This document shows, one piece after another, positions 7,005-29,189 of a DNA stretch of 64,000 bases. The notes beneath the pieces were generated by a model. That model was not told the DNA's origin and did no database searches. It saw only the letters and a list, made by a program, of their open reading frames with translations. Within the stretch, counting starts at the first letter, position 1; the number at the start of each line of letters is the position of its first letter. Source of the stretch: an uncultured bacterium (GTDB taxonomy: Bacteria; Fermentibacterota; Fermentibacteria; Fermentibacterales; Fermentibacteraceae); assembly GCA_964603785.1 (NCBI GenBank), contig CAZRWD010000009.1:18082-82081 (forward strand). Direction: 5' to 3'. The position numbers and the translations under genes were made by a program.

Positions 7005-9337
7005 CTGCCACCGTCCTCGACGAGGAACACCCTCACGGCGTCCTCCATCTTCTCTATCGGGACGAAATCCATCTCCCCCCTGAGAGAAGGATCGACATCC
7101 TCGAGGTCCCTCATGTTGTCCCGGGGCAGGAGCACCGTCCCTATCCCGGCCGCGTGCGCACCCAGCACCTTCTCCTTCACACCGCCTATCATCATCACCC
7201 TGCCGTGGAGGGTAATCTCGCCCGTCACGGCGGCATCCGCACGGAGTGGCCTCTCAGTGAGGGCGGAGAGCAGGGACAGGGCCATGGCGACCCCGGCCGA
7301 CGGCCCGTCCTTCGGCGTGGCCCCGGCGGGAACGTGGACATGGATGTCCATCTTCTGGAAGTCGGCCGTGATCCCGTACCGCACCGAGCTGGACCTGACC
7401 CAGGTCAGGGCGGCCTGGGCGGACTCCCTCATGACCTCGCCCAGCTGGCCCGTGAGGACGAGCTTGCCGGTCCCGGGCATCACCGTGCTCTCGACGAAGA
7501 GGATCTCGCCCCCGGCGGGGGTCCACGCCAGGCCGGTGGCGACACCCGTCCTGGGCTTCCTGCCCGCGGTCTCCTGGAAGTACTTCACCGGACCGAGGTA
7601 GCCCGCCACGGAGGATGCCGTGATCCGCTCGGCCGGGTCCTCGCCCGAGGCGACCCGGACGGCAACCCGGCGGCAGATCTTGCCTATCTGCCTCTCGAGC
7701 TCCCTCACGCCCGCCTCCCTCGTGTACTTCTCGACCATGGCGGACAGGCCGCTCCTGTGGAACCTGACCTGCCTGCCGGTCAGGCCGTTGTTGCGGACCT
7801 GCTTCGGGATCAGGTACCGCCTCGCGATCTCGAGCTTCTCGGCGCCCGTGTAGCCCGAGAGCCTGAGGACCTCCATCCTGTCGAGGAGGGCGGAGGGAAT
7901 GGTGTCGAGCTGGTTGGCCGTGGTTATGAACTCGACCCTCCGGAGGTCGAACGGCACGTTCAGGTAGTTGTCCCTGAAGCTGAAGTTCTGCTCGGGATCG
8001 AGGACCTCCAGGAGCGCCGAGGTGGGGTCGCCCCTGAAGTCGCGCCCGACCTTGTCCACCTCGTCGAGCATGAAGACGGGGTTGTTCGACCCGGCCTCCC
8101 TGAGGCCCTGCACGATCCTGCCCGGCATCGCTCCCACGTAGGTCCGCCTGTGGCCCCTGATCTCGGCCTCGTCGTGCACCCCGCCCAGCGAGATCCTCAC
8201 GAATCTTCGCTGCATGGCCCTGGCTATGCTGCGGCCCATGGAGGTCTTGCCGACGCCGGGCGGGCCCACGAAGCAGAGGATGGGGCTGGAGGCCGACGGG
8301 TTGAGCCTCTTCACCGCGAGGAACTCGAGGATCCTCTCCTTGACGTCCCTGAGGTCGTAGTGGTCCTCGTCGAGTATCCTGCGGGCCGAGGAGATGTCCA
8401 TCTGGTCGTCGGTCCCCTCCAGCCAGGGGAGCTGGAGCACCCATTCGATGTAGGTCCTGGAGACGGCCACCTCCGGAGTGCCGGGGGGCATCTTCGCCAG
8501 CCTGTCGAGCTCCTCCTCGGAGGCCTTCCTGACCTCCTCCGGCAGGTTCTTGGTCGAAAGCCTCTCGCGCAGCTCGGCAGCCTCCGGGTTGTCCCCCTCC
8601 CCCGCCCCGAGCTCCCGCTGGATGGCCTTCATCTGCTCCTTGAGCCAGTACTCCTTCTGATCCTTCTCCATCTCGGATCGGACCTGGCTCTGGATGCGGT
8701 TCCTGAGCTTGAGGATCTTGACCTCGCGCGCCATGATGTCCGAGAGGAGCTTCAGCCTGCGCAGGATGTTGTTCTCCTCGAGTATGGCCTGCTTGTCCGG
8801 GATGTTGGCCTCGATGCCGCCCGCCGCGACGAAGCCGAGCCTCTCGGGGTCCCTCAGGAGGCTCACCAGCTGGACCTCGTCCGGGATGCCGGGGGACAGC
8901 TCGACGATCTGCTTCAGCTGCATCTCCACGTTCTTGCGCCAGGCCTCGATCTCGTCGGCCTTCGGGGGCCATTCGGTCTCGAGCTTCTCCACCCTGGCCC
9001 TGAAGTAGGGCCTGGTCTGGACGAATCCGGTGATCCGGAACCTGACGAGTCCCTTCAGGCTGAGCCTGATCACCTCCCCGGGGAACCTGTAGAGCTTGAC
9101 TATCCCTGCTGCGGTTCCCGTTCCGAAGAGGTCCTCGGCCTCGACCGGCGAGGTGTCCGGGGCGCGGACGGCCACGAGGCCCATCATCTTGTTGCCTACG
9201 ACCGCGTCGTCCACCAGCCCGATCTGGGCCGGGTCGGTGACGGTCAGCGGGATGATCGAGTAGGGGAACGCCACGCCGTCCTGGAGAGGGAGGATCGGCA
9301 GGGTCTGGGGCAGGTGGAATTCGCTCTCCGGGTTCAT
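7001..9337 (-). CDS. lon: ATP-dependent Lon protease
   Basis: N-terminal LON substrate-binding region, Walker [10 protein letters not shown], and the proteolytic domain [20 protein letters not shown]. The start is either at 9364 (table) or at 9337 (MNPESEF...), which abuts the hsp20 stop. Confidence 0.9.
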
Positions 9338-9705
9338 CACCCCTCCACTGAAACGTTCGAGCACTCGTCGGGGTCGATCCCGATCCTGACCGGACCGGCG
9401 GGCATCAGGGGCATCTCGATCCTCAGGACGCCGTCCCTCATCTCGGCCGTAGCTTCGGAAGCCTCGATCCTGGCCGGCAGATCGATCTCGCGCTCGAAGC
9501 GGCCCGTCCTGATCTCCAGCCTCTCGGCCGCGAGCCCGGGGAGTATGGGACCCCTGACGCCCCGCACGACGACCGATCTGCTCCTCGCGAAGACCTCCAC
9601 GTCCGGGGGCCGCATGCCGGGCAGCTCCACGAAGAGTATCAGGTGCGTCTGCGTCTCGTAGAGGTCCACGGCCGGGGACCAGTATCCGCCAAGGCTCTGC
9701 AGCAA
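9337..9705 (-). CDS. Hsp20/alpha-crystallin family small heat-shock protein
   Basis: Alpha-crystallin domain: VDLYETQTHLILFVELPGMRPPDVEV ... RSFRL-like REIDLP...GVLRIEMP. It lies immediately upstream of lon. Confidence 0.8.
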   Translation of the reverse strand: MLQSLGGYWSPAVDLYETQTHLILFVELPGMRPPDVEVFARSRSVVVRGVRGPILPGLAAERLEIRTGRFEREIDLPARIEASEATAEMRDGVLRIEMPLMPAGPVRIGIDPDECSNVSVEG

Positions 9706-9718
9706 TGTTCCTCCCGGC

Positions 9719-11956
9719 CTACTGGACGTCGAACCTGACCTGGACGGTCGTGGGCACTTCGACAGGCACCCCGCCCTGGGTGGCGGGCTGGAAGCGCCAC
9801 TGGCTGACGGCGTCCGCGGCGGCCTGGCCGCAGCCGAGCCCGAGCGGGTCGTTGACGACCCTGACGTCCGAGACCGAGCCGTCGGTCCGGACCGTGAGCT
9901 CGAGCGTCACGTATCCGTGGATGTCGCCTCTCTCGGCGGCCAGACCCGGAACCGTCGGCGCGACGGTGGAGATGGCGAACGGCGGGATGACCGGCTGTTC
10001 CTCGATGATGTCGGGCTGCTGCTGGACCTCGGCGGCCGTGTAGCGGATCATCGTGTCCTCGCCGAGGGTGATCGTGACCGTGCTCACCTGGTCTTCGTAG
10101 CCGGGGTTCGTGAGCCGCACGGAGTAGGTTCCCGGCTCGAGCTCGATCGGAGGGAGCGGGGTCTGTCCGTAGCTCTGGCCGTCGATGGTTACCTCGGCCC
10201 AGGGTTCCGGGCCGATCAGGAGCCGCCCTGTGGTGACGTTCCTCTCCGGGGTGACCGTGGCGCTGTACCCGTCGGGGCCGAGGGTTATCGACCTGGTCCA
10301 GTCCTCGTAGCCCTCGAGCCTCACGGTGAGGGTGTGGGTGCCCCTGTCGGCGATGTGGGTCAGCCTTCTGCCGGATCCGACGGATGTCCCGTCCACGAAG
10401 AAGCTGGCCGTGCCCTCGATGTCGCCGGCTAGGGTCAGCGAGATCTGGGATGTCTCCGAAGAGAGCAGCGCGAGGGGCTGCAGGAAGCTGCCCGGCGTGT
10501 CCACCAGCACCGTCTCGGGAAGCGAGTTGTAGCCTGTCAGAACGGCCTGGAAGACGTGCGTGCCGGTCGGCATCTCCGAGGAGAGGGAGGTGCCGGAAAC
10601 GCCGTCGACGAGGATGCTCACCGAGCCGGGCTGCGGGGTGGGCTCGCCGGCGGGCATCAGGATGTTGAACGTGACGTCGGCCGTGTTCGTCCCTAGCGGG
10701 GAGAGAACCAGAGTGTCCGTGACCTGCTGGCCCTGGGCCAGATCCAGCCTGGTCTGCAGCACCTCGTAGCCCTGCGCCCTGACCTCGATGCTCCTCTCGC
10801 CGAAATCGGTCCCGGTCAGCCTGTAGGCCCCCGTCGAGTCGCGCTCGATCTCCTGCCCGTCGACGGAGAGCAGGGCGTCATCTGCTCCCGCCAGGTACAG
10901 CGACACCGAATAGGGCTGCACCGGAGGCGCCTCGACGGGCTCCGGGGATCTACCGGAGAAGAGCTTGACGGCTCCGAAGGCGACGGCCGCCACGACCGCC
11001 GCCCCGACGAGGATGGGCACCAGGGGGAGCTTCCTGCGCTCCCTCTCCTCGCGCGCGGCGGGCTCTGCCGCCGCCGGGGCCGGCGCCGCCGCCGCGACCG
11101 GCACCGCCGCCGCGATCACGGGTTCGGGGGTTCTCTCCGCCGACCTGGAGACGGGGGCGGCCACCTTGCCCAGGCGCTCCGCCAGCCCGCGGATGGTCGG
11201 GTCGTCAGGGAACCTCTGCTGAGCCTCGCGAGCCTCCTGGAGGGCGAGGTCGAACTCGTTGCCGGCTATCAGCTCGCGGATCGCCGCTATCGCCCCGTCC
11301 ACACCGGCCGGGGTCTCCTCGACCTCGACAGGCTCCTCGGCCTCGAGAGTCCCGACACCATCTGCCGCAACGAACTCGTCCACCAGGTCCTCGTCGGAGA
11401 TCTCGCCGGCGGAGGAGGCATAGTCCTCCACCTCGGCCAGGAGCCTGTCGAGCGCGGGGGAGGTGGGCCAGAACTCGAATATCTTCCGGGCCTGCTCGAG
11501 GGCTCCGGCGGGATCCGACGCCCTCAGCCTGGTCAGCCCGAGGTCGGCCAGGTTGTTGGCCTTGATGCTTCGCTTGACCGACTTTATGCGCCGGTTGATG
11601 TCGACGTTCTCGTCATCCTGCCTGCGGGCCCTCTCGAGCTCCTGGAGGGCGCGGATCTCGTCTCCTGCCTCCAGGGCCTCGTCGGACCTCCTGACGCACT
11701 CCTCCACGAAGCCGGCCGCTGCGGGCGCCGCGGCCTCGGTCGGGCTGTGCGCCCTGATCGACCGTGTGCGCTTGAAAGCCTTCATCGCCGCTATCTCGCG
11801 CTCGATGGACTGGGCCTCTTCACGGACCTCGTCGTTGTCCGGCTCGAGATCCATGGCCTTGCGGAGCGTCCTCAGAGCCTGCTCGCGCTCGCCGGACTCC
11901 ATCTGCCTTCGTGCGGCTCGAAGCAGCTCAGTGACACGGCTTTCAGCAGCGCTCAT
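9719..11956 (-). CDS. Multidomain TonB-family protein: N-terminal TPR-like region, TM segment, PEGA domains, C-terminal TonB energy-transducer domain
   Basis: The C-terminus GYVTLELTVRTDGSVSDVRVVNDPLGLGCGQAAADAVSQWRFQPATQGG is a TonB_C signature. The PEGA-type motifs are TIDGQSYGQTPL...LEPGTYSVRLTNPGYED and VRLEGYEDW. The hydrophobic TM segment is LPLVPILVGAAVVAAVAFGAV. Confidence 0.7.
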   Translation of the reverse strand: MSAAESRVTELLRAARRQMESGEREQALRTLRKAMDLEPDNDEVREEAQSIEREIAAMKAFKRTRSIRAHSPTEAAAPAAAGFVEECVRRSDEALEAGDEIRALQELERARRQDDENVDINRRIKSVKRSIKANNLADLGLTRLRASDPAGALEQARKIFEFWPTSPALDRLLAEVEDYASSAGEISDEDLVDEFVAADGVGTLEAEEPVEVEETPAGVDGAIAAIRELIAGNEFDLALQEAREAQQRFPDDPTIRGLAERLGKVAAPVSRSAERTPEPVIAAAVPVAAAAPAPAAAEPAAREERERRKLPLVPILVGAAVVAAVAFGAVKLFSGRSPEPVEAPPVQPYSVSLYLAGADDALLSVDGQEIERDSTGAYRLTGTDFGERSIEVRAQGYEVLQTRLDLAQGQQVTDTLVLSPLGTNTADVTFNILMPAGEPTPQPGSVSILVDGVSGTSLSSEMPTGTHVFQAVLTGYNSLPETVLVDTPGSFLQPLALLSSETSQISLTLAGDIEGTASFFVDGTSVGSGRRLTHIADRGTHTLTVRLEGYEDWTRSITLGPDGYSATVTPERNVTTGRLLIGPEPWAEVTIDGQSYGQTPLPPIELEPGTYSVRLTNPGYEDQVSTVTITLGEDTMIRYTAAEVQQQPDIIEEQPVIPPFAISTVAPTVPGLAAERGDIHGYVTLELTVRTDGSVSDVRVVNDPLGLGCGQAAADAVSQWRFQPATQGGVPVEVPTTVQVRFDVQ

Positions 11957-12134
11957 CTATCCTCCTCGCCTGGTGCCCGCCATCAGGACAATGAGTATTC
12001 CCCGGACCGGCCGCCCTCCGCCGGCTCCGGGCCGCCTGCCGGATATCCTCGAAGCAATATTGAAAAGCCGCTTGCCACTGGCAACCGCGCCGACGATTCG
12101 CGTTCGCGGCGTGCGGCGGAGCGGCCATCCGTAC

Positions 12135-14177
12135 TCATATCATGTTGTTCTGCGTCAGTTTGTAGCGCCAGACCAGCTCCTCCTCCAGGCCCGGGCCGGG
12201 GCTGTGCGTTCTGACGAGCTCGGATGCCTCGGAGACGAGGGCGCCGTCCGTGGCCAGATCCGCCACCCTGAACTCGGGAAGACCGCTCTGCCGGGTTCCG
12301 AGGATGTCTCCCGGCCCCCTTATCTCGAGGTCCCTCCGGGCCAGCTCGAATCCGTCGGAGGTCCCGACCATGGCCGCGAGGCGCATCCGCGCCGATTCCC
12401 CCGCATCCTCCCCCGAGACCAGGAAGCACCAGGAGTCCCTGCTGCCGCGGCCGATCCTCCCCCTGAGCTGGTGGAGCTGGCTGAGCCCGAACCTCTCGGC
12501 GTCGGAGACGATCAGGACGGTCGCCTCAGGCACGTCCAGGCCGACCTCCACGACCGTGGTGCTCACGAGCACCCTCGTCCTGCCGGATGCGAAGTCGTCT
12601 GCGGCCGCCACCTTCCGCGCCGCCGGCATCGAGCCGTGGATGAGACCCGCCCCGAAGCGGCCGAGCGGCCCGGCGGCGATCCTCTCCCAGGCTGTCGTCG
12701 CATCCTTAAGGTCCTGCTTCTCGGAGGCCTCCCTGAGCGGATAGACTATGTACGCCCTCTCTCCCGCCTCCAGCCGCTCCCTGAGGACCTCATAGGCCCT
12801 TCGCCTGTCCTCCTCCCCTATCAGCTCCGTCATCGTCCTGCCCCTGCCCGGGGGGAGCTCGTCGAGGACCGAGAGGTCCAGGTCGCCGTAGAAGGCCATG
12901 GTGAGGGTCCTGGGGATCGGGGTGGCAGACATCACGAGAAGGTGAGGCCTCCTGAGCCTCCCCCTCATGAGCTCCTCCCTCTGCGCCACCCCGAACCTGT
13001 GCTGCTCGTCCACGACCACGAGCGCGAGTCCCGGAAGCTCCACCGGGGGCTCGAGAACGGCGTGGGTGCCGGTCAGGAGTACGGGCGCGCCGCTCGCGAG
13101 CTCCTCCAGGAGCGCCCTGCGCTCCCTCGCCGGGGTGCCCCCCGACAGCTGCCTGCACGCAATGCCGAGCGGAGCGGTCAGTCTCTGCAGCGTCCTGAGG
13201 TGCTGTGATGCCAGCACCTCGGTGGGTGCGAGGAGGACGGCCTGCATGCCCCGGGTGCACGCCAGGGCGCATGCTGCGGCCGCAACGACGGTCTTCCCCG
13301 ATCCCACGTCGCCCTGGAGCAGCCGGCGCATGGGAAGCGGGCCCGCCATGTCGGACAGGATCTCGTTCGTCGACCTCTCCTGGGCCCTCGTCAGACCGAA
13401 CCCGAGGCCGCCGAGGAACCGGGGGAGGAAGGATCCGTCGAGGGGGACCCGGATCCCCTCCGAGTCGCAGGCGGCTTCGCGGACCCTCGCGAGCGCGTGC
13501 TGGTGGAGGAATATCTCCTCCAGGGCGAGCGTGCGCCGGGCCCTCCCGGCCGAGGACGCCGAGGAGGGTCGGTGGGCCTCCACCAGCAGGTCCCTCCTCG
13601 ATGCGAAGCCGTGCATCGCCATGCGCCCCTCCGGGAGAACGGACCGGAGCCCTGCGGGGAGCGAGTCGAGGGCGGAGTCGATGATCCTCCTCATCACCCC
13701 CTGGGTGATGCCGGAGGTCAGCGGGTACACCGGCAGCAGGGAGGCGGGAGGGCACCCTCCGGCCTCCTCCCCGGGCACGAGCAGGTCGGGATGGGTCATG
13801 ACGGGACCCCTCAGGAAGACGACCTCGCCCGATGCGGTCACGCTGGAGCCGACGGGCAGCCTGGAGCGCATCCAGGCGGAGTTGAAGAAGGACAGTGCGA
13901 GCACGCCGGTTCCATCGGAGACGAATGCCTGCAGCAGGCGCCTCCCTCCGCGGAGCCGCCTCTCCGAGAGGTGCGTGACCGTGCCGGTCACGGTGGCCCT
14001 GGAGAGAGGTTCGAGCGAGCCGATCGACCGGACCTCCCCCCGGTCCAGGAAGCGCCTGGGCAGGTGGAGGACCAGGTCGCCAAGGCATCTGATGCCCAGC
14101 CGGGCGAGCATCCCGGCCCTTGCCGGACCGACTCCCCGCAGGTATCTGACCTCGTCTCCGAGCGCGGTTCCGATCAT
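12135..14177 (-). CDS. recG: ATP-dependent DNA helicase RecG
   Basis: Helicase motifs GDVGSGKTVVA, DEQHRFGV and SATPIPRTL. The likely start is MIGTALGDEVRYLRGVGPARAGMLARLGI (HhH wedge N-terminus) at aa 72 of the table ORF. The upstream 71 aa look like a non-coding extension. Confidence 0.88.
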   Translation of the reverse strand: MIGTALGDEVRYLRGVGPARAGMLARLGIRCLGDLVLHLPRRFLDRGEVRSIGSLEPLSRATVTGTVTHLSERRLRGGRRLLQAFVSDGTGVLALSFFNSAWMRSRLPVGSSVTASGEVVFLRGPVMTHPDLLVPGEEAGGCPPASLLPVYPLTSGITQGVMRRIIDSALDSLPAGLRSVLPEGRMAMHGFASRRDLLVEAHRPSSASSAGRARRTLALEEIFLHQHALARVREAACDSEGIRVPLDGSFLPRFLGGLGFGLTRAQERSTNEILSDMAGPLPMRRLLQGDVGSGKTVVAAAACALACTRGMQAVLLAPTEVLASQHLRTLQRLTAPLGIACRQLSGGTPARERRALLEELASGAPVLLTGTHAVLEPPVELPGLALVVVDEQHRFGVAQREELMRGRLRRPHLLVMSATPIPRTLTMAFYGDLDLSVLDELPPGRGRTMTELIGEEDRRRAYEVLRERLEAGERAYIVYPLREASEKQDLKDATTAWERIAAGPLGRFGAGLIHGSMPAARKVAAADDFASGRTRVLVSTTVVEVGLDVPEATVLIVSDAERFGLSQLHQLRGRIGRGSRDSWCFLVSGEDAGESARMRLAAMVGTSDGFELARRDLEIRGPGDILGTRQSGLPEFRVADLATDGALVSEASELVRTHSPGPGLEEELVWRYKLTQNNMI

Positions 14178-20883: not shown

Positions 20884-21869
20884 TCAGCGGACCCCGGCCA
20901 GGGCGGCCGGGGCAGCGAGAGACCGGCCGCAAGAAGCAACAGGGCGGCGGCCCCCGCGAGCACGAGCCTGGAATTCATCCAACTCCCCCAAGATCGAGTC
21001 CGCGACGGCCCGGAACCCGTCCTCCCCGCGGCCGAGGCCCGAGGCTTCGACGAGCCTCTGCCTTGAGTGCTCCGGCCTGCCCTCCCTCAGATCCTCCAGT
21101 GCGGCACTCACCAGGGCCCAGCCGAGGTTCCGCGCGGCAGCCGCCGAGCGGCGCGCCTGCCAGGCCCGGCGCAGCGCCCAGACCCGCCTCTCGGTGTCTC
21201 CCTCCAGGAGAGCCACGCGGGCATGGGCGTCCCAGTACGACTGGTCGCGACAGCGCTCCCGCCTCAGTGCGAGAAGGTTCTCCATGGCCTCCCCCTGCAG
21301 GCCGGCGTCGCACAGGGCCTCGACGAGCATGGAGCGGTAGAAGCTCTCGCCCGGTCGGAGGGCGACGGCCTGCCGCAGCAGCCCGAGGTGCGCGGAGGAA
21401 TCACCCTCCGAAGCCGCCAGCACAGACAGCCAGCAGGCCGCATCGGCGGCGGTCGAGTCGTCCGGGGAGTTCAGCGCCTCCTCGAGGAAGGCCCTGGAGG
21501 GTTCGTGACCGCAGGCCGCGGCCTGGTACCTCGCCGGCCCCCCGCCCCGCAGGAGGGCGGCCAGCCGGACGACCTCGCCCGTCTTCCCCAGCCTCCTCAG
21601 GGTCTTCATGTACTCGGACAGGAGGAGTTCGCTCTGGGGCCTCATGCGCCAGGCCTCGCAGGCGAACGCGAGCGCGCTGTCCGGAAGGTCCATCTGGTTG
21701 TATGCCCAGGCTATCCGCCACGAGGTCCACGGATCGGGGCTCGACGCGCCGGAGCGCTCCGAGAGGAGGGCCGGTATGGCCTCCTCGATCAGGCCCTCGC
21801 GCACCAGGGAATCGCCGTTCGTGAGGAGAGCGATCGAGAACAGGACTGCTGCGGGTGCGGCCGGCGTCA
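20884..21869 (-). CDS. Hypothetical Ala/Leu/Arg-rich protein (possibly TPR-like); start uncertain
   Basis: Downstream part of table ORF 20884..22260 has good GC3 bias. The upstream 130 aa overlap the small secreted protein gene and look like an artifact. No ATG is nearby; candidates are the CTG/GTG at TPAAPAAVLFSIALLTNGDSLVREG. Confidence 0.4.
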
Positions 21870-22250
21870 GTTCCCCTGCAGCGCTTCGCCCGAGAAGGCC
21901 CCGTTGACGTGGAGCTCCAGGAGGAAGCTGTCGGAGGGCCTCCAGTCGATGCCGATACCGCCGAGGTACATGCCCGCGTCCGGACCCGAGAAGTCGAACA
22001 GGCGGGTGTAGCCGAGGCTCACCTCCGCGCTGACGTCGGGATGGAGGAGGAGCCCCATGGTCCCGAGATAGGTGCCGGTGCTCCAGGATCTCCCGCCGCC
22101 GGAGGTGAACGAGAAGGCCATGGAGCTCCCGAAGGACGGGGTGAGGAGCGGGGAGCCATCGCCTTCGAGCAGGTCGAATCCCGAAGGATCGAGACCGAAT
22201 GCGAGAGCTGCCGAAAGGGGCAGCAGGGACAGCAGGGTTACGAGTTTCAC
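21867..22250 (-). CDS. Small secreted protein (127 aa), possibly a small beta-rich outer-membrane/periplasmic protein
   Basis: GTG start giving MKLVTLLSLLPLSAALAFG (signal peptide), preceded by SD GGAGGTG at a 7-nt spacing. It is the C-terminal part of table ORF 21867..24200, which otherwise runs antisense through the ABC gene. Confidence 0.5.
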   Translation of the reverse strand: MKLVTLLSLLPLSAALAFGLDPSGFDLLEGDGSPLLTPSFGSSMAFSFTSGGGRSWSTGTYLGTMGLLLHPDVSAEVSLGYTRLFDFSGPDAGMYLGGIGIDWRPSDSFLLELHVNGAFSGEALQGN

Positions 22251-22381: not shown

Positions 22382-24193
22382 TCAGACCCGGTCGGGAGGA
22401 CCGCCCGGGCGTCGTCCGGACATGTCCTCGCGGCCAGGCCGCGCGGGAGACACCATGCGTGAGTATAGCCCGCAGGATACGAGCAGTTCCATGTGGGTGC
22501 CGGAGGCCGCCACCGCCCCGCCGTCGATCAGGAGCACCCGGTCTGCGGCCTCGAGCACAGTCGGGTCGTGGCTGACCGCTATGCACATGAGGTCGGCCGA
22601 TATGGAGCGGACGGTGTCGAGGAGCGCGGAGGCCATCGAGTGCTCGAGCGACGAGGTGGGCTCGTCCAGGACGAGGAGGGCCGGCTCGCGCACGAGAGCC
22701 CTGGCGAGGGATACCCGCCGCCTCTGACCCTCGGACAGGAGCACGCCCCGCTCTCCCACGGGCGTATCGGCGCCCAGCGGCAGGGATGCCGTGAATCCCG
22801 CCGAGCCCGAGAGCTCCAGCGCCTTCTCGACAGCCTCGCGGGATGCGTCCGGGCTCCCCGCCAGCACGTTCTCGAGGACGGTGCCCGGCAGGAGGGAGAC
22901 GACCTGGGGGACATAGCCGATCCTCGCGCGGAGGGCGGATGTCCCGTACTCGTCGGCATCCCTGCCGTCGAAGAGGATCCTGCCCCCGGAGGGCCTGTAC
23001 AGCAGCAGCATCAGTCTGAGCAGCGTCGTCTTGCCGGCTCCGCTGGGTCCGGCCATCGCCAGCAGCCCGCCCTTCGAAGCCCTGAAGGAGAGGCCGTCGA
23101 ACAGGGGCGCCCTGCCGGGATACCCGAAGGAGACCCCTTCGAACTCGAGGGTCGAGAAGGCGGGCGCCTCCGTCCGCCCGCCGGGCACGGCCGGTTCCTC
23201 CGGCTCCACCTGCCAGATCTCGTCCAGGCGCTCGAGCGCGGCCGCGGCTCCCTGGAGATCGAGGGAGGACGAGGCGAGGAACCTGGCCGGGCTGAAGACG
23301 GCCGCCAGGTAGGCCTGGAAGGCGATCAGGGTACCGAGGCTCATCGACCCGTCGAGGACCATGCCCCCTCCGGCGAGGAGCACGCCGAGGTGGACGGCAC
23401 CCTGCACGAGTTCGAGGGAGACCGCCGCCAGCGAGCCCTGCCTGGTCCTCTCTATCCCTATCCCCAGGAGCCTGTCGAGCCTCCCTGTGAAGCCGCCGAG
23501 AACCCGCCCCTCCATGCCGTAGGCCTTGACCACCTCCGAGGCGGCGACTCCCGACACGAGGTGTCCGACCGCATCGGCGTTGCTCTCCATCGCCCGGGCG
23601 GCCAGACGTCTCATCCTCCCCGCGAAGAGCGACGCGACGAGGAAGAGGAGGGGTACGGACAGGGTCGCCGCGAGGGCCAGCCTCCACTCCAGGATCATTA
23701 TCAGGACGACGCTCCCCGCGAGGCGCAGGGCGGAGGAGACCATCCCGGGGACCGCGCCGGTGAACACCCATCTGAGCGTTCCGAGGTCCGAGGTGAAGCG
23801 GGTGGCCAGATAGCCCTCCCCGAAGCGGTCGTGGAAGGCCAGGGGGAGCCTCAGCGTCCTCTCGAGGAACCTCTCCTGGAGCTCCAGCCCGATCCTCCTG
23901 TCCAGCCTGGCGGAGGTCATCTGCTGTGCGTAGCCTGCAGCCGTTCCGGCCAGCCTGAGCCCCGCCAGCAGGGCGGCCCCGGCGAGGAGCCAGCCCCGGT
24001 CGCCACCGAGCAGGGCCCTGTCCACGAGCGATCGCGTGACGGCCGGGAGCGCCAGGGTCAGGGCGGTGCCCGCCGCGAGCAGCAGCAGGACGGCCAGCAG
24101 CCCTCTTCCGCCGCTCCTGAACACCGGGACCAGGACCTCCCTGGAGAAGGGCCTGCCGTACAGCGCCCGGAGCCCCGGAGTCCGCTCTCTCAT
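22382..24193 (-). CDS. ABC exporter, fused permease + ATP-binding domains (MsbA/bacteriocin-exporter type, no C39 peptidase domain)
   Basis: Six predicted TM helices, followed by Walker A GPSGAGKTT, signature LSEGQRRRVSLARAL and Walker B LLVLDEPTSSLE. Its ATG overlaps the kinase gene stop (ATGA). Confidence 0.85.
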   Translation of the reverse strand: MRERTPGLRALYGRPFSREVLVPVFRSGGRGLLAVLLLLAAGTALTLALPAVTRSLVDRALLGGDRGWLLAGAALLAGLRLAGTAAGYAQQMTSARLDRRIGLELQERFLERTLRLPLAFHDRFGEGYLATRFTSDLGTLRWVFTGAVPGMVSSALRLAGSVVLIMILEWRLALAATLSVPLLFLVASLFAGRMRRLAARAMESNADAVGHLVSGVAASEVVKAYGMEGRVLGGFTGRLDRLLGIGIERTRQGSLAAVSLELVQGAVHLGVLLAGGGMVLDGSMSLGTLIAFQAYLAAVFSPARFLASSSLDLQGAAAALERLDEIWQVEPEEPAVPGGRTEAPAFSTLEFEGVSFGYPGRAPLFDGLSFRASKGGLLAMAGPSGAGKTTLLRLMLLLYRPSGGRILFDGRDADEYGTSALRARIGYVPQVVSLLPGTVLENVLAGSPDASREAVEKALELSGSAGFTASLPLGADTPVGERGVLLSEGQRRRVSLARALVREPALLVLDEPTSSLEHSMASALLDTVRSISADLMCIAVSHDPTVLEAADRVLLIDGGAVAASGTHMELLVSCGLYSRMVSPARPGREDMSGRRPGGPPDRV

Positions 24194-25107
24194 CCTGCAT
24201 CCCCGAGGAGGCTCCTGACCGCGGACCAGTCCGGACCCTCCAGCGTCAGCCCAGCCGTGGCGCAGGGCACCGAGAGCGCCAGGCGCCTAGCGAGCCCGGC
24301 GGCCTCGATGGCCACCGCCGGGGGCAGGTCGTCGTGACGGCACCAGCATCCTTCGTGGAGCCTGCGGATCGCCTCGCCCGAATCGATCCTGCACAGCGAG
24401 AAGGCGTCGGCCTTCTCGAGGAAGAGGACGGCCCCGAGCGGCGCAGGCCCGCCATCCGGTTCGAGGAGGCTCCAGCCGGTCGGATGGACGAGCGGCCGGT
24501 CTCCCTCGATGCTCACGGCGTTGCAGTCGTCCGACAGGATGCGCCCTCCGTGGCCGGAGAGGACTGCGGTGGTCTTCCCCCCCTCGTCGGGGGCTACCAT
24601 CAGGACTCCCCTTCCGTCCAGGACGACGGCGGAGCTGTGGATCAGCAGGGTCGAGAAGAGCGGCGTGAAGGGCGAGACGATCCCCGGGTTGAGGGTGAGC
24701 ACCGTGTCCAGGTCTTCGGGCACCCTGTCGCCGTTGGTCAGGGCCAGGGAGGCTGCGCGGTCGAAATCCCACAGCGTCAGTGTGTCGGTCCTGCGGTCCG
24801 CGGTCAGCCCGAAGGCGCGGGACGGCTCGGGACCGAACTCCCCCGCCAGGATGCGGGCAGCCTCGCCGCAGCCCGGCCCTCCCGAGGCGACCGCACGGGA
24901 CAGCCTGTCGAACGCGGGGCCGGGGAGCCTGTCGAACACGATCCCCACGGATCCGCGCGGGGCCGATCCGTCGTCGCCGGCTCCCAGGTCCCGGAAGGCG
25001 TACCTGGTCCTTGTCCTGATCGTGATCTGGAAGCTGATGCCCGCAAAAGCGAAACGGAGGCCGCACGGGCCTCCGATCTCGATCCTGCGGTTCCGGGGAG
25101 CGGTCAA
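24190..25107 (-). CDS. HprK-related kinase (HPr kinase/phosphorylase C-terminal-domain-like P-loop protein)
   Basis: LIHSSAVVLDGRGVLMVAPDEGGKTTAVLSG matches the HprK C-terminal-domain pattern LH(A/S)SAV...G.G.L..G.SG.GKST. TTG start lies 7 nt after the precursor B stop. Confidence 0.6.
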   Translation of the reverse strand: MTAPRNRRIEIGGPCGLRFAFAGISFQITIRTRTRYAFRDLGAGDDGSAPRGSVGIVFDRLPGPAFDRLSRAVASGGPGCGEAARILAGEFGPEPSRAFGLTADRRTDTLTLWDFDRAASLALTNGDRVPEDLDTVLTLNPGIVSPFTPLFSTLLIHSSAVVLDGRGVLMVAPDEGGKTTAVLSGHGGRILSDDCNAVSIEGDRPLVHPTGWSLLEPDGGPAPLGAVLFLEKADAFSLCRIDSGEAIRRLHEGCWCRHDDLPPAVAIEAAGLARRLALSVPCATAGLTLEGPDWSAVRSLLGDAG

Positions 25108-25114
25108 GGCCGCT

Positions 25115-25330
25115 TCAGGCCATCGATCCGGTTCTGCAGCCGTAGGCGACCTGGGAGCCGAGAATGCACTCGATGGACCAGTCGGGAGCTATCCCCGTGG
25201 GGCGGCACTGGTTCTGTATGGGCTGGGAACCGGGGAGGCAGATGCCCCTGGATCCGTCGTCCGTTAATCCCCTGTCCCCCGAGAGGTCTATGGAGCCAGG
25301 CGCCTCGTAAAGCGATCTGTAGCCCGGCAT
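25115..25330 (-). CDS. Cys-rich precursor-like peptide B (71 aa), paralog of peptide A
   Basis: ATG with SD GGGGGTGA 2-3 nt upstream. Sequence: MPGYRSLYEAPGSIDLSGDRGLTDDGSRGICLPGSQPIQNQCRPTGIAPDWSIECILGSQVAYGCRTGSMA. Four Cys spaced 12/12/9, conserved with peptide A. GC3 bias is good. Confidence 0.6.
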   Translation of the reverse strand: MPGYRSLYEAPGSIDLSGDRGLTDDGSRGICLPGSQPIQNQCRPTGIAPDWSIECILGSQVAYGCRTGSMA

Positions 25331-25480
25331 TTCACCCCCGTTTCCATGCTCCCGGCTCAACAGGTCCGGGATGGCGCGTGAGCGGCTTCCACACCCTTAG
25401 AATACGGTCCGGGGGGGATGGTTCCCGTCTCCCGGCAAAGGCGAGCATAAGACGAACCCTCCGGAAACACCAGAGGCCGG

Positions 25481-25693
25481 TCAGACCATGGACCCCGCGT
25501 TGCACATGTAGGCCACCTGCCCGCCGACGTTGCAGCGGATCGGGATGTGCGGGGCGTGACCGACCGGCGAGCACTGGTTCTGGACCGGATGGGTCCCCGG
25601 ATTGCAGATGCCCGTCACACTTCCCCCCTGGAGACCGGGACCCCCGGACAGGTCCATGCAGCCGGGGGATTCGTAAAGCCTTCCCTCAGGCAT
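25481..25693 (-). CDS. Cys-rich precursor-like peptide A (70 aa)
   Basis: ATG start. Sequence: MPEGRLYESPGCMDLSGGPGLQGGSVTGICNPGTHPVQNQCSPVGHAPHIPIRCNVGGQVAYMCNAGSMV. It shares with peptide B the motifs LYExPG, DLSG, GICxPG, QNQC, QVAYxCxxGSM. It lies immediately downstream of the second rSAM gene. Confidence 0.65.
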   Translation of the reverse strand: MPEGRLYESPGCMDLSGGPGLQGGSVTGICNPGTHPVQNQCSPVGHAPHIPIRCNVGGQVAYMCNAGSMV

Positions 25694-26828
25694 CCCGCCC
25701 GCCTTCCATGCCTTGCGCCCTGAGCCTGGACGCGGGGAACAGACCGAGCGACTCGGCCATGCCGCAGAAGGCGTTGCCGGAGGATATGCTCCTGCCCGCC
25801 AGATAGTTCAGGGCCACGCAGTCACCCCTGCAGAAGTCCCTGTGGATGCAGCGCGAGCATGTCCCCCCGAGCCCGGACGGGATGGTCTCCCGTATCTCCC
25901 GCAGCACCGGCGCACTCCTCCAGACCTCCTCCAGCCCGTCGCTCCGGATGTCGCCGAAGACCAGGCCCGGAAGCGACACCCCCGCCCCGCATATCGAGAT
26001 CTCTCCCGTGTGGAGTATGCCGAGGACGGTGTGTATGTCGCAACGGGAGCAGCCCTGCCTGAAGAGGTAGCCGGGAGGGAGGAACGCGGGGGGCAGGTGC
26101 AGGATGATCCGGGGGCCGGGCTTCGAGGCCCGCTCCGCCAGCTCGGAGCCCGCCCGGAGGAGGTCGCGGGGCTCGAGGAGCTCCTCCCCGGGGACGTCGC
26201 CCCCCCTTCCGATCGGCTGGATGTGGTTGAACTTGACCGATCCGCAACCCAGGCGCTCCGCCATGTCGATCACGTCCGTGACCTCGCCCGCGTTGCCCTT
26301 GTGGAGAGTGCAGATGAGCTGCGGCCTGATGCCCCGCCCGACGAGCCTTCCGATCCCCTCCATTGCCCGCCCGAAGCAGCCCGGCACCCCCCTGAGGGCC
26401 TCGTGGGTCTCCGCCGTGGCGCCGTCGACGCTCACGGAGATCGACCTGAGCACGCCGCATCCGGCGAGCAGGTCTGCGGTGGATTCGGTGAGGAGGGTCC
26501 CGTTGGTCTCCACCACGAGCTGGATGCCGTGCTCCGCGACCATGTGCACTATCTCGCCGAACGCGGGGTTCAGAAGGGGTTCGCCGCCCGTCAGCTTGAC
26601 GCTTGCCAGGCCCAGGGGCACGGCCTGTTCGACGGCGCTCCGCGCGACTTCCGGAGACATGTGGAGCGACGGGCCGGGGGCGTCTCCCTGGACGGGGCTG
26701 ATCCAGCAGTGCCTGCAGGAGAGGTTGCATGCCCCGGAGACGTACATGTAGAGTGATGCCAGAGGAGGGACTCCGGCACAGGGTCCGGGGGGGGCGGCGG
26801 CTCCGCAGGCCGGCGGGTCACACGGCAT
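25686..26828 (-). CDS. Radical SAM/SPASM-domain protein 2 (peptide-modifying maturase-like)
   Basis: CNLSCRHC (CxxxCxxC) near the N-terminus. C-terminal SPASM cysteines CSRCDIH...ISICGAG...GGTCSRCIHRDFCRGDC. The start is ATG 26828 (strong SD GAGGGGGG) or ATG 26750; the 26 codons between them have weaker GC3 bias. Confidence 0.85.
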   Translation of the reverse strand: MPCDPPACGAAAPPGPCAGVPPLASLYMYVSGACNLSCRHCWISPVQGDAPGPSLHMSPEVARSAVEQAVPLGLASVKLTGGEPLLNPAFGEIVHMVAEHGIQLVVETNGTLLTESTADLLAGCGVLRSISVSVDGATAETHEALRGVPGCFGRAMEGIGRLVGRGIRPQLICTLHKGNAGEVTDVIDMAERLGCGSVKFNHIQPIGRGGDVPGEELLEPRDLLRAGSELAERASKPGPRIILHLPPAFLPPGYLFRQGCSRCDIHTVLGILHTGEISICGAGVSLPGLVFGDIRSDGLEEVWRSAPVLREIRETIPSGLGGTCSRCIHRDFCRGDCVALNYLAGRSISSGNAFCGMAESLGLFPASRLRAQGMEGGRDA

Positions 26829-27918
26829 CGGACACCCCCCTCGAAACGGCGAACCTCCTGTAGCAGTCGACCGGGACGACGGCGTTCATGTCGCCGGTCA
26901 TCTCCAGGGCGAGCCCGGGACAGCTCCCGGTGCACCATGCCGAATAGGCGCACCCGCCGCAGCCCGGCACCTCCTCCATCGGGATATCCGCCCTCGCCCT
27001 CAGCGCCTTCATCACGGGGTGGTCCAGCCAGACTCCGGCGAGCCCGTCGGTGGTGACGTTCCCCATCACCATCCCGTGCAGGATGTGGCAGGGGACGATG
27101 GAGCCGTCGTGCATGACGTCGATCCTGGACCATACGCAGCCGCATCCGGACAGGAACCCGCCGCGGTATCCCGAAGGGGGCGCTCCCGTCCGGGACGAGG
27201 CGGCGATCGAGTCGAAGAACCCCGTCCGGGCGGCGGGGCCGGCCTGGGCCTGTATCCGCCCGGGATACCTCGCCATGAGCTCCCTGAAGTCATCCATGGC
27301 CCTCCAGGACTCCTCGGGCGTGAGGACCCCCCCGGAGGGACCGCAGCCGGAGCCCATGCCGAAGGCCTCGTTGGTCCCGAAGGAGTCGAGGCCCAGGTCC
27401 TCCAGCAGGAACCTGGCGAGGTCCCCCAGGTGGTCGACGTTGTGCCTGCCGATGGTTGCCCGGACCGCCACGGGGAGCCCCGCGGCGCGGGCTCTCTCCA
27501 GACCCGCGACGGCGGCTTCGAACCCTCCAGGGCGGGAGCGCTCGTGGACTTCCGCGCAGTGCCCGTCGATGGAGATCTGCAGATAGTCCATCCTGGTCCT
27601 CCGCCTGCCTTCGGCCAGCCTGCCGGCCATCTCCTCCGTGAGGAGGGTGCCGTTGGAGAGTATGGAGTACCGGAGCCGGTTCTCCACCGCCCTGTCCACC
27701 AGGTCGACGAAGCCGGGCCGCAGCAGGGGCTCCCCGCCCGTGAACAGGACCCTCATGACACCCATCGAGCCGAGCTGGTCGATGAAGGAGAGCCAGTCCC
27801 GGTCGGGGAGGTCGGGCAGCAGGTTCATCTCGTTCGCATAGAAGCAGTAGCCGCACGAAAGGTTGCACCGGCCGGTGACGGCGATGCCCACGGTCCTGGG
27901 GGCTTCCGGCAGCTGCAC
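26818..27918 (-). CDS. Radical SAM/SPASM-domain protein 1 (peptide-modifying maturase-like)
   Basis: GIAVTGRCNLSCGYCFYANE (CxxxCxxC at residues 17-24, so there is no N-terminal RRE domain). SPASM cysteines CGCVWSRIDVMHDGSIVPCH and CGGCAYSAWCTGSC. GTG start lies 1 nt after the PqqD stop. Confidence 0.85.
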   Translation of the reverse strand: MQLPEAPRTVGIAVTGRCNLSCGYCFYANEMNLLPDLPDRDWLSFIDQLGSMGVMRVLFTGGEPLLRPGFVDLVDRAVENRLRYSILSNGTLLTEEMAGRLAEGRRRTRMDYLQISIDGHCAEVHERSRPGGFEAAVAGLERARAAGLPVAVRATIGRHNVDHLGDLARFLLEDLGLDSFGTNEAFGMGSGCGPSGGVLTPEESWRAMDDFRELMARYPGRIQAQAGPAARTGFFDSIAASSRTGAPPSGYRGGFLSGCGCVWSRIDVMHDGSIVPCHILHGMVMGNVTTDGLAGVWLDHPVMKALRARADIPMEEVPGCGGCAYSAWCTGSCPGLALEMTGDMNAVVPVDCYRRFAVSRGVSDAV

Positions 27919-27919
27919 T

Positions 27920-28228
27920 TCAGGCGGGCGGGATCCGGAGGACGAAGCCGGCCTTCTCCATGTCCTCGAGGAAGGAGGCCACGTCGTCCTCCACCCGCCC
28001 GGCCGGGGCTTCCTCGAAGGCCCCGGCCAGCGATGCTGCTATGTCGGAGACCGGCCGGACGCCGTCGAGGCCCGACCACACGAAGAGGCCGGTCGCATTG
28101 AGTATCCTCACCCTGTTGGCATCGGGATCGAACAGGAGCCCGCCCTCCCGGTCCTCCTCCCGGAGGGTCACGACCGGGTTGCGCGAGTAGACAGCTCTCC
28201 CCCGGGGGGTCGATTCATGCTCCGTCAT
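27920..28228 (-). CDS. Standalone PqqD-family peptide chaperone (RiPP recognition element)
   Basis: LLFDPDANRVRILNATGLFVWSGLDGVRPVSDIAASLAGAFEEAPAGRVEDDVASFLEDMEKAGFV is a classic PqqD fold signature. The preferred start is ATG at M8 of the table ORF, with SD GGAGGT upstream. Confidence 0.8.
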   Translation of the reverse strand: MTEHESTPRGRAVYSRNPVVTLREEDREGGLLFDPDANRVRILNATGLFVWSGLDGVRPVSDIAASLAGAFEEAPAGRVEDDVASFLEDMEKAGFVLRIPPA

Positions 28229-29189
28229 CCGGACCTCCGGTTTCCACAACGCATCCGACTGGCGCGGAGTTCCTGCGGCCGGTCCTCTCGATCGCGAGGA
28301 ACACGGCCCCGATCAGAACCGCGAACCACAGGGTGGCGAAGCGCATGAGCAGTGTGACCGCCGCCGCGCCGGCCCCGCCGAGCGGGCCCGACAGGATCCC
28401 GTCCATCGTCAGCTCGGTGAGCCCCAGTCCCCCCGGTATCATGGACACGGCCCCGGCGATGGTCCCCGCGGAATGAGCCAGCAGTGCGGTCCCCGCACCC
28501 GTCCCGAGGCCTATCGATCTCGCCGCGGCCGCTATGACCATCGCCTCGAGACCCCACGACAGGACCCCGAGCGGAACGGAGACGGCGAGGCTGGCGGGTC
28601 CGAGGAGATCGCCGCAGGTATCCCTGAACGAGCACAGGGAATCGCTCCTCCCCCTGAGCGGGCGGATGCGGCAGGCGAGGCCGGCGAGCGCGCCGAAGAT
28701 CCTCCTCGAGGAGAGAACGGCCACGGAGGCGGCCGTCACGAGAGCGCCGGCGGCTATCACGGGCGCCACCGCGGCGCCTCCGGCGAGGGCGGCTCCCGCG
28801 GCCGCGAGCACCGTCATGCTCATGAGGTCGGTGATCCGCTCCGCAACGACGACGGGAGATGTCCGCGAGACGGGGATGCCCTCCCTGTCGCGGAGGAGGC
28901 AGGACTTCAGGAGCTCGCCGAACTTGCCCGGAGAGACGGTCATCGAGAAGCCGGCCAGGAACACCTGCAGGCTCCGTCCGAATCCGGGTCTGATCCCGGC
29001 GCGCCCGAGGAAGTAGTGCCATTTCAGGAACCTGAGGAAGTAGTTCGCCAGGGGCAGGCCGAGGATCGCGGGCAGCCACCGGGGGTCGAACGATTCGAGG
29101 GCCGCGCCTGTGCCGCGCATGTCGCCCGCCAGGACCAGGACCGAGTAGACGACGATCGCCAGGGCCGCGGTCAGGAGCAGCTTCTTCAA
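28218..29189 (-). CDS. UPF0104 / lysylphosphatidylglycerol-synthase-TM-like ('flippase-like') integral membrane protein
   Basis: C-terminal 324 aa of table ORF 28215..30152 (the upstream part is antisense to the TPR gene). Motifs DPRWLPAILGLPLANYFLRFLKWHYFL...GKFGE, with multiple TM helices. The putative TTG start overlaps the upstream TGA (TTGA). Confidence 0.65.

Follow-up and report, generated by a model that had tools for sequence, protein, structure and literature searches.

The two short genes lying in tandem at positions 25,115 to 25,693 of the 64-kb stretch of Fermentibacteraceae DNA analysed here (hereafter, the window) encode peptides of 70 and 71 residues, A and B, which most probably (about 0.85 by our estimate) are genuine precursors of the ScmA class of ribosomally synthesised peptides that carry post-translational modifications (RiPPs), served by a divergent cassette of SynChlorMet (SCM) type with two radical S-adenosylmethionine (SAM) enzymes. 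SynChlorMet is an orphan radical SAM/SPASM system that is defined by database models only; its gene set is catalogued together with a precursor model of its own, ScmA (TIGR04252), which the first-pass annotation of this DNA had not recognised when it proposed that A and B are paralogous precursors served by the adjacent radical SAM and PqqD genes. The proposal itself is borne out by homologues of the two peptides that lie at the ScmF gene in 57 of 80 related loci. The cassette makes a sound lead for genome mining and is not a new kind of system.

The paired peptides and their family

Translation of the minus strand reproduces exactly the two sequences that had been quoted for this region as tandem paralogues. 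Peptides A and B share 55% identity over 65 aligned residues (BLASTP E 9e-25), with 39 invariant columns; at the nucleotide level their genes are 60% identical, the proportion of nonsynonymous differences (pN) being 0.32 versus 0.66 for synonymous ones (pS), with a dN/dS ratio of ~0.25 in which dS is saturated. Different codons are used at 18 of the 39 residues that are identical between the two. The G+C content at third codon positions (GC3) is 0.83 in A and 0.79 in B, as compared with 0.88-0.94 in the genes around them, while the 150-nt spacer that separates the two reaches 0.66, and G-rich, purine-rich runs resembling Shine-Dalgarno sequences precede both initiation codons (GGAAGGCGGGCGGG-ATG and GGAAACGGGGGTGAA-ATG), in agreement with the earlier claim that each gene has its own ribosome-binding site and a coding-type bias. 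The ATG of peptide A shares 8 nt with the stop of the upstream radical SAM gene (ATGCCTGA); the open reading frame (ORF) of peptide B reaches upstream to a TTG at 25360 in a mechanical list of ORFs, its 71-residue form starting from the ATG at 25330. For the source organism, the records of NCBI and Logan both list the two ORFs as genes. Contigs identical to the source contig are present in several metagenomes, and nine metagenome contigs of the organism are 100% identical to one another, which leaves no variation to analyse.

Relatives of A and B were looked for in, among others, a set of 80 genomic loci gathered via homologues of ScmF, the radical SAM enzyme encoded just upstream of A, in which all small ORFs were listed for the peptide search; the nearest of these homologues (46-49% identity) come from metagenome-assembled genomes (MAGs) of Fermentibacteria, Verrucomicrobiota and Anaerolineae. 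Simpler searches brought up no relatives: when 5.8 billion proteins were screened by word index with the A+B profile, the two peptides were the sole matches, and direct tblastn of the two peptides against the 80 loci gave nothing at E <= 1e-3, so that profile methods are needed for detecting the family. An exhaustive search of 1.84 billion representative proteins with a hidden Markov model (HMM) built from A and B found nine homologues of 72-100 residues (E 6e-7 to 5e-4), which have a common layout, as can be seen in the C-terminus of one of them (P0126, AVAYACSAGSLV) when set against that of A (QVAYMCNAGSMV). The genomic context was looked up for four of the nine, and all four lie between ScmF-like and ScmC-like genes. 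Most of the 80 ScmF loci encode a peptide directly after ScmF, and iterated HMMs run over 8353 small ORFs (from the loci plus the window) collected 71 peptides in 57 of the loci; in 46 of the 72 loci for which downstream sequence is available, ScmF is followed by a peptide gene of the same strand at a distance of no more than 700 nt. The first-pass annotation had named a lack of homologous small ORFs beside orthologous radical SAM and PqqD genes as grounds for giving up its claim, and their presence in these 57 loci leaves the claim standing.

The recognition works also in the reverse direction. An HMM made from peptides of foreign genomes only retrieves A and B with E ~6e-8 among the 8353 small ORFs, and no other ORF of the window scores. 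When A and B are aligned together with the 71 peptides of the loci, 16 of the 73 match the curated ScmA model TIGR04252 with E <= 0.01, and hhalign aligns the profile of the window-type subfamily with that of the short, canonical ScmA-type peptides at a probability of 97.3% (E 2.5e-11). A and B therefore fall among the divergent members of the ScmA precursor family, which spans Fermentibacteria, Chloroflexota, Aminicenantes, Desulfobacterota, Acidobacteriota, Bacteroidota and methanogens. Strict anaerobes are the main carriers of the cassette, such as Syntrophales, Desulfobacterales, Anaerolineae, methanogens, Aminicenantes and Fermentibacteria.

Comparison across the family has changed the picture of how the peptides are built. 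Conservation had been thought to run along their whole length; instead, it is concentrated in an N-terminal motif, Y-x-x-P-x-x-x-D-L-S, and in a modular Cys core, the two being separated by a variable linker (residues ~18-27) that differs even between A and B. The family form of the leader motif is [KR]-x-K-Y-E-x-P-x-[L/A/V/I]-x-[D/N]-L-S, with Y/W and P (+3) in 100% of the members, L/A/V/I (+5) in 91% and L (+8) in 85%; Y7 and P10 are present in both A and B and are invariant in their subfamily. A small residue at -4 and Gly/Ala at -2 (68%) precede the first core Cys. The earlier description was right in that the spacing of four Cys is common to both peptides (C30, C41, C54 and C64 in A; C31, C42, C55 and C65 in B), but the true value of this spacing is C-x10-C-x12-C-x9-C and not x12-x12-x9. 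A fifth Cys, C12, lies in the leader of A and has no counterpart in B.

The core is modular: it consists of units of ~10 residues with the consensus C-x-x-G-[STG]-x-[APV], a motif which to our knowledge matches no characterised module, and the modal spacing between Cys is x9-x10. Over 380 core Cys, position +3 is Gly in 86% of the cases, +4 is S/G/T in 67% and +6 is A/P/V in 65%; the stretch behind the last Cys is six residues or longer in 81 of 82 peptides. The number of modules varies from 2 to 14 across the family and is four in each of A and B, in whose subfamily C30, G33, C41, P43, G45, P48, C54, G57, C64 and G67 are invariant and P36 is nearly so. The C-terminal C-x-x-G-S is near-invariant in the same subfamily, with the Ser lying 2-3 residues from the C-terminus.

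Tandem copies of the precursor are common: locus L061 has five of them, and L046, L055 and L075 have three apiece. The five copies of L061 (6305-7505, from a Bacteroidetes MAG), like the two of L085 (2343-3117), are short peptides with two Cys modules and the leader E-Y-Q-x-P-E-L-x-D-L-N-N, and they are located upstream of ScmF, not downstream. At the other end of the range, loci L056 (7345-7704) and L063 (9188-9574) encode very long precursors with 14 Cys, in which CC, CxC and C-x4-C spacings break the module of ~10 residues.

The maturation cassette

On the minus strand, the genes for ScmD, ScmE, ScmF, peptide A, peptide B (after the 150-nt spacer), a ScmC-like protein and an ATP-binding cassette (ABC) exporter follow one another with overlapping or abutting junctions (Table 1). 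The window thus contains, co-linear on one strand, a PqqD-family protein, two radical SAM/SPASM enzymes, Cys/Gly-rich peptides and ScmC, which is the architecture required of an SCM cassette, and most of the 80 ScmF loci show the same succession, D-E-F-[peptide]-C-ABC. For each of ScmD, ScmE and ScmF, the matching Scm model is the top match among those of NCBIfam. ScmF scores 333.4 bits with TIGR04251 (E 1.9e-99, model positions 2-353 of 353), the next model being AhbD with 145 bits, and its homologues at 45-50% identity carry the JGI name ScmF; ScmE scores 303.6 bits with TIGR04250 (E 1.6e-90, model positions 1-353 of 358); ScmD scores 51.8 bits with TIGR04248 (E 7e-14), followed by PqqD with 29.9 bits. 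ScmD matches also the lasso PqqD model NF033530, and the Pfam PqqD domain is recorded on the same gene in record L001.

Table 1. Coordinates of the cassette genes, of the predicted parts of the two precursors and of nearby hairpins in the window
Feature	Positions	Strand	Details
ScmD-like PqqD-family protein	27920..28228	-	102 aa from ATG at 28228; ORF reaches TTG at 28249
ScmE-like radical SAM/SPASM enzyme	26818..27918	-	366 aa; TIGR04250 ScmE; Pfam Radical_SAM and SPASM
ScmF-like radical SAM/SPASM enzyme	25686..26828	-	380 aa; TIGR04251 ScmF; stop overlaps ATG of peptide A by 8 nt
Precursor peptide A	25481..25693	-	70 aa + stop; translation, BLASTP versus B, HMM, codon statistics, subfamily alignment, hhalign
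Peptide A, predicted leader (residues 1-28)	25610..25693	-	Y7-E-S-P10-G-C-M-D14-L15-S16; would end at G28, -2 from first core Cys; family motif
Peptide A, predicted core (residues 29-70)	25484..25609	-	Four modules: C30-NPG-THP, C41-SPVG-HAP, C54-NVG-GQV, C64-NAG-SMV; module statistics, subfamily alignment
Terminator-like hairpin	25458..25476	-	Begins 4 nt past stop of peptide A; weak T tail
Precursor peptide B	25115..25330	-	71 aa + stop; translation, BLASTP versus A, HMM, codon statistics, subfamily alignment
Peptide B, predicted leader (residues 1-29)	25244..25330	-	
Peptide B, predicted core (residues 30-71)	25118..25243	-	
ScmC-like P-loop protein	24190..25107	-	305 aa; only in-frame start is TTG, 7 nt past stop of peptide B; 4-nt overlap of its stop with ABC start
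GC-rich hairpin followed by TTTCGCTTTT	25055..25075	-	40 nt past stop of peptide B, within first 18 codons of ScmC-like gene
ABC exporter, fused permease and ATPase	22382..24193	-	603 aa; Pfam ABC_membrane and ABC_tran only

Both radical SAM enzymes have the CxxxCxxC motif near the N-terminus (CNLSCGYC at residue 18 of ScmE, CNLSCRHC at residue 34 of ScmF) and the SPASM motif CxxCx5Cx3C (CGGCAYSAWCTGSC at residue 320 of ScmE, CSRCIHRDFCRGDC at residue 324 of ScmF). They have no N-terminal extension, and the position of the first motif implies that neither of them carries a fused recognition domain. Seven Cys in the C-terminal region of ScmF are invariant across 25 homologues. The closest relatives of known structure are PqqE, SkfB, SuiB and CteB, with PqqE on top for ScmF, and the models for SkfB, CteB, StsB and PapB also score against the two enzymes. 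Some relatives of the cassette have two PqqD genes, one ahead of each radical SAM enzyme (L019, 154-402 and 1587-1847; L023, 6228-6491 and 7658-7939; L039, 4529-4783 and 7680-7886), an arrangement suggesting that a recognition partner can be dedicated to each of the enzymes; in the window there is a single PqqD.

The ScmC-like protein contains a G-G-K-T-T P-loop and an S-D-D motif, and it aligns over its full length with 13 homologues from other cassettes, with H157, G177-K178 and D194 invariant. We take this combination of His, P-loop and Asp-Asp to correspond to the constellation of HPr kinase/phosphorylase (His ... G-x-G-K-[ST] ... D-D). A precomputed match to PF27840 (ScmC) is weak and there is none to TIGR04249 (ScmC) at E <= 0.1, while among the 14 ScmC sequences as a group TIGR04249 is matched by four and HprK_rel_A by five (E 8e-4 to 2e-5). 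A profile search of PDB with the ScmC alignment gave matches at the P-loop level only, and a word-indexed protein search with the window protein found just the protein itself. In an Anaerolineales MAG (L012) the unit of precursor and ScmC is duplicated, the precursors lying at 9126-9374 and 10929-11183 and the ScmC-like genes at 9675-10586 and 11616-12527; the presence of a separate ScmC paralogue after each precursor is a hint of a fit between ScmC and its substrate.

Absence of a C39 peptidase domain from the adjacent transporter, as reported in the first-pass annotation, is confirmed: Pfam finds only the ABC domains, and the alignment to NHLM peptidase-type exporters starts as late as model position 158, with the membrane region beginning from ~residue 30. 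A different peptidase appears in the related cassettes. A gene of ~200 codons, whose product has the signature GxSMxPTFxPGD...VHRV...GDNN, lies between ScmC and the exporter in 49 of the 80 loci, including the closest ones of Fermentibacteria, Anaerolineae and Verrucomicrobiota (for example, L016 7999-8610, L012 12531-13142, L011 8378-8968, L037 4363-4992 and L027 11696-12346). Its matches are to TIGR02228, archaeal-type signal peptidase I, with E values between 1e-12 and 3e-14, and, less clearly, to S26 and S24 of Pfam; the searches run with NCBIfam and Pfam gave no match to a model specific to Scm. This S26-type protein is probably the leader peptidase of the related cassettes. The 64-kb window has no homologue of it (best tblastn E 0.59), so that the cassette is a reduced one and would have to rely on an unlinked protease. 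In L027, and similarly in L028, there are additional genes between ScmC and the exporter, one for a sulfotransferase-like domain fused to PqqD (10878-11696) and the other for a CxxCxxCC protein that is putatively Zn/Fe-chelating (12400-12891); they may possibly perform additional tailoring steps in some Chloroflexota cassettes.

The surroundings of the cassette add little to the system. The flanking PBP1A, TPR, LPG_synthase_TM and SecA genes, as well as ORFs of 84, 306 and 110 residues, were considered as possible parts and rejected, having no homologues in the 80 loci. The LPG_synthase_TM/flippase-like gene (28215-29189, minus strand) overlaps the start of ScmD by ~35 nt, with the PBP1A and TPR genes packed upstream; because it has no homologues in other SCM loci, the overlap probably reflects mere compactness of the genome. 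The 84-residue ORF (21867-22121, minus strand; MAFSFTSGGGRSWSTGTYLG...) follows closely on the exporter; it has been called a gene but has no recorded domain. Scans of the window with Rfam and for tRNA were empty, and the spacer between A and B has a folding z-score of 0.36, with no unusual RNA structure. Two terminator-like sites were found in 8.5 kb versus 1.5 +/- 1.1 expected, a count not above chance. The hairpin at 25055..25075 could possibly be a partial terminator or attenuator, and the positions of the two hairpins would suit the usual over-expression of precursors relative to enzymes, insofar as this can be inferred from sites whose number is at the level of chance.

Relation to known systems and the likely chemistry

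How close is this cassette to those for which the SCM models were made? The set and order of the genes are the same, as are the leader of Y-E-x-P...L type and the C-x-x-G modules that A and B share with ScmA-type peptides. The window precursors differ in having a longer leader plus linker (DLSG...G-x-C) and Pro-rich modules (C-x-P-G-x-x-P), and their cassette differs in lacking the S26-type peptidase of its relatives and in a ScmC and ScmA that match no Scm model of NCBIfam. Several facts weigh against our assignment and its functional extensions. All five cassette proteins fall under the curated SCM cut-offs, which are 400 bits for both ScmF and ScmE, 100 for ScmD and 35 for ScmA: the values of 333.4, 303.6 and 51.8 bits for ScmF, ScmE and ScmD are top-ranked and full length, yet below these limits, and A and B have no match to TIGR04252 at E <= 0.1. 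The leader position +5 is C in A and S in B, not L/A. After the Scm models, the radical SAM enzymes rank AhbD, MftC, NirJ and PqqE ahead of sactipeptide maturases. The assignment of ScmC as a kinase comes from weak matches (E 8e-4 for HprK-related kinase A, 0.16-0.28 for HprK of PDB), and its single-sequence AlphaFold2 model, with a predicted local distance difference test score (pLDDT) of 32, is unusable for judging the fold. Finally, no protease gene was found in the cluster or anywhere in the window. By the curated cut-offs the cassette does not rank as an equivalog member of SCM, though it is evidently related to that system and resembles it in its workings. No published product or chemistry of any SCM cassette was found in the literature searched, with subscription literature lying outside the search.

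Lasso peptide clusters offer the most instructive parallel for recognition of the leader. Lasso leaders conserve a YxxPxL motif that is associated with recognition by PqqD-like B1 proteins (PMC10368454), and HprK-like kinases of lasso clusters phosphorylate the C-terminal Ser of the precursor, with BsfK requiring the B1 recognition protein (PMC9266682, PMC10368454). The Scm family has the equivalent Y-x-x-P with a hydrophobic residue at +5, a ScmD that matches the lasso PqqD model, a ScmC that weakly matches the model of HprK-related kinase A (the lasso module has the HPr-kinase-like PadeK, ThcoK and BsfK, and an ABC exporter as well) and, in A and B, the near-invariant G-S close to the C-terminus. 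The differences are that +5 is occupied by C or S in the leaders of A and B, that 1-2 further residues keep the conserved Ser from being terminal (it lies 2-3 residues from the end), that two radical SAM enzymes take the place of the cyclase and the B2 protease, and that the kinase activity of ScmC is only predicted. Neither lasso cyclase (asparagine-synthetase-like) nor transglutaminase-like B2 protease domains occur among the cassette proteins of the window.

Ranthipeptides and sactipeptides, such as freyrasin (PapB), thermocellin (CteB) and the sporulation killing factor (SkfB), resemble the window system in their radical SAM/SPASM maturases and Cys-containing cores, which in freyrasin comprise repeated Cys modules, and the models of SkfB, CteB and PapB all score against ScmE and ScmF. 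They differ in having one maturase with a fused recognition domain, as against two maturases and a separate PqqD in the window, where the enzymes are closer to the PqqE/MftC lineage and a thioether product is a matter of inference. The systems for pyrroloquinoline quinone (PQQ; PqqA/D/E) and mycofactocin (MftA/B/C) likewise combine a small precursor, a chaperone of the PqqD family and a radical SAM/SPASM enzyme like PqqE or MftC. Their precursors are near-invariant, and one or two residues of them become the cofactor, in contrast with the hypervariable, modular, duplicated and exporter-linked cores of the window type.

In functional terms, these parallels can be assembled into a working scheme. 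The operon from ScmD to the ABC exporter would be co-transcribed, with translational coupling at the D-E-F-A and B-C-ABC junctions, the overlaps of which are observed. ScmD, standing alone, is predicted to bind leader residues ~5-16 (Y7-x-x-P10 ... D14-L15-S16), given the resemblance of the leader to the lasso YxxPxL motif and the match of ScmD to the lasso PqqD model, and it would hand over the core to ScmE and ScmF, both of which would modify each of the four modules. The likeliest modification is a single cross-link inside each module, joining the sulfur of Cys with one of the six residues that come after it, as a thioether of sactionine or ranthionine type; Cys is the only invariant side chain of each module and about six residues seem to be needed after it, which argues for one cross-link per module running from Cys to a downstream acceptor. 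The prerequisites of sactipeptides and ranthipeptides are present, namely radical SAM/SPASM enzymes with complete Cys motifs and invariant core Cys, and judging from these sequence features we would give thioether chemistry a chance just short of even. ScmC might then add an ATP-dependent step, most plausibly the phosphorylation of a core Ser/Thr such as that of the C-terminal G-S; a kinase role, deduced from motifs and distant matches, is tentative and somewhat less than evenly probable. Enzymes of the signal peptidase I type follow the -3/-1 rule, and the first Cys is preceded by a pattern that agrees with it, small(-4)-x-Gly(-2), so that cleavage is predicted after G28 in A and G29 in B, presumably by an unlinked protease as there is no local S26 gene. 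The resulting products of 42 residues would presumably leave the cell through the C39-less transporter.

Among the alternatives, it is hardly credible that A and B are chance ORFs in GC-rich 3' untranslated or intergenic DNA, or else unmodified disulfide peptides unrelated to the neighbouring enzymes. High-GC DNA does throw up many spurious ORFs, and neither peptide matches any family model in Pfam or NCBIfam; against this stand the BLASTP value of 9e-25 between the two, their dN/dS of 0.25 and coding-type GC3, the homologues that occupy the corresponding site in dozens of genomes far apart in phylogeny, and the fact that both ORFs are called genes in the NCBI and Logan records. Scarcely better is the case for double-glycine precursors, of class II bacteriocin or NHLP type, that the exporter would cut after the G-G of DLSGG. 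This site had been singled out earlier as a possible point of processing because of G17-G18 in peptide A, and the NCBIfam matches of the exporter do include NHLP-type and bacteriocin ABC exporters, but B has G-D here, no more than 23% of the family have Gly next to DLS-G on its C-terminal side, the exporter is devoid of a C39 domain and related cassettes have an S26-type peptidase instead; the suggestion is best abandoned. It is improbable, too, that the modified peptides stay inside the cell as precursors of a redox cofactor or metal-binding peptide used by anaerobes, in the manner of PQQ or mycofactocin. The kinship of the radical SAM enzymes and PqqD with the PqqE/PqqD and MftC lineages, the occurrence of the cassette mainly in strict anaerobes and the richness of the cores in Cys and Gly would all accord with such a role. 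Cofactor precursors, however, are nearly invariant, whereas the present peptides have 2-14 modules, hypervariable sequences and frequent tandem paralogues typical of secreted RiPPs; moreover, an ABC exporter lies within the operon and recurs in many loci, and no conserved partner oxidoreductase was seen.

A more serious, if still unlikely, alternative keeps cassette and precursors as they are and changes the chemistry: ScmE and ScmF could form cross-links of C-C or C-O type, could act as epimerases or could oxidise Cys, for example to a product of formylglycine or thioaldehyde type. The role of the conserved Cys would in this case be that of the oxidised residue or of a later ligand for metal or disulfide. 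The ranking of AhbD, MftC, NirJ and PqqE directly after the Scm models and ahead of the sactipeptide maturases favours it, as does PqqE being the top solved relative of ScmF, and anSME, the founding SPASM enzyme, oxidises Cys or Ser (PMC10114670). On the opposite side, the thioether-forming SkfB, CteB and StsB also score, and Cys is the sole invariant side chain of every module, with at least six residues kept after each Cys. The layout of the modules fits rings made by a Cys donor and a downstream acceptor, as in ranthipeptides with their repeated CX3D motifs.

Implications for the family

A bolder proposition concerns the ScmA class as a whole, and in its entirety we hold it to be rather doubtful. 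ScmA-class peptides may be the substrates of a RiPP class in which two cooperating radical SAM/SPASM enzymes install one undescribed cross-link in each module, for example from Cys(i) to i+6, with a HprK-like ScmC adding phosphate or using ATP for a further step, so as to produce a modular, poly-cyclic scaffold that would be common among uncultured anaerobes; in the window we would then have a minimal version with two precursors and without the usual S26 leader peptidase. If this is true, the class may hide new cross-link chemistry.

The precursor family is far broader than the curated ScmA model, with a lasso-like YxxP leader and a Cys module of ~10 residues that can be counted. A, B and their relatives are now unnamed hypothetical proteins, to which a broader ScmA model would give a name. 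For chemists, the substrate logic that emerges is testable, involving four modules, two enzymes and one kinase-like protein, and the compact cluster of seven genes, with two natural variants of the substrate, is suited to heterologous reconstitution.

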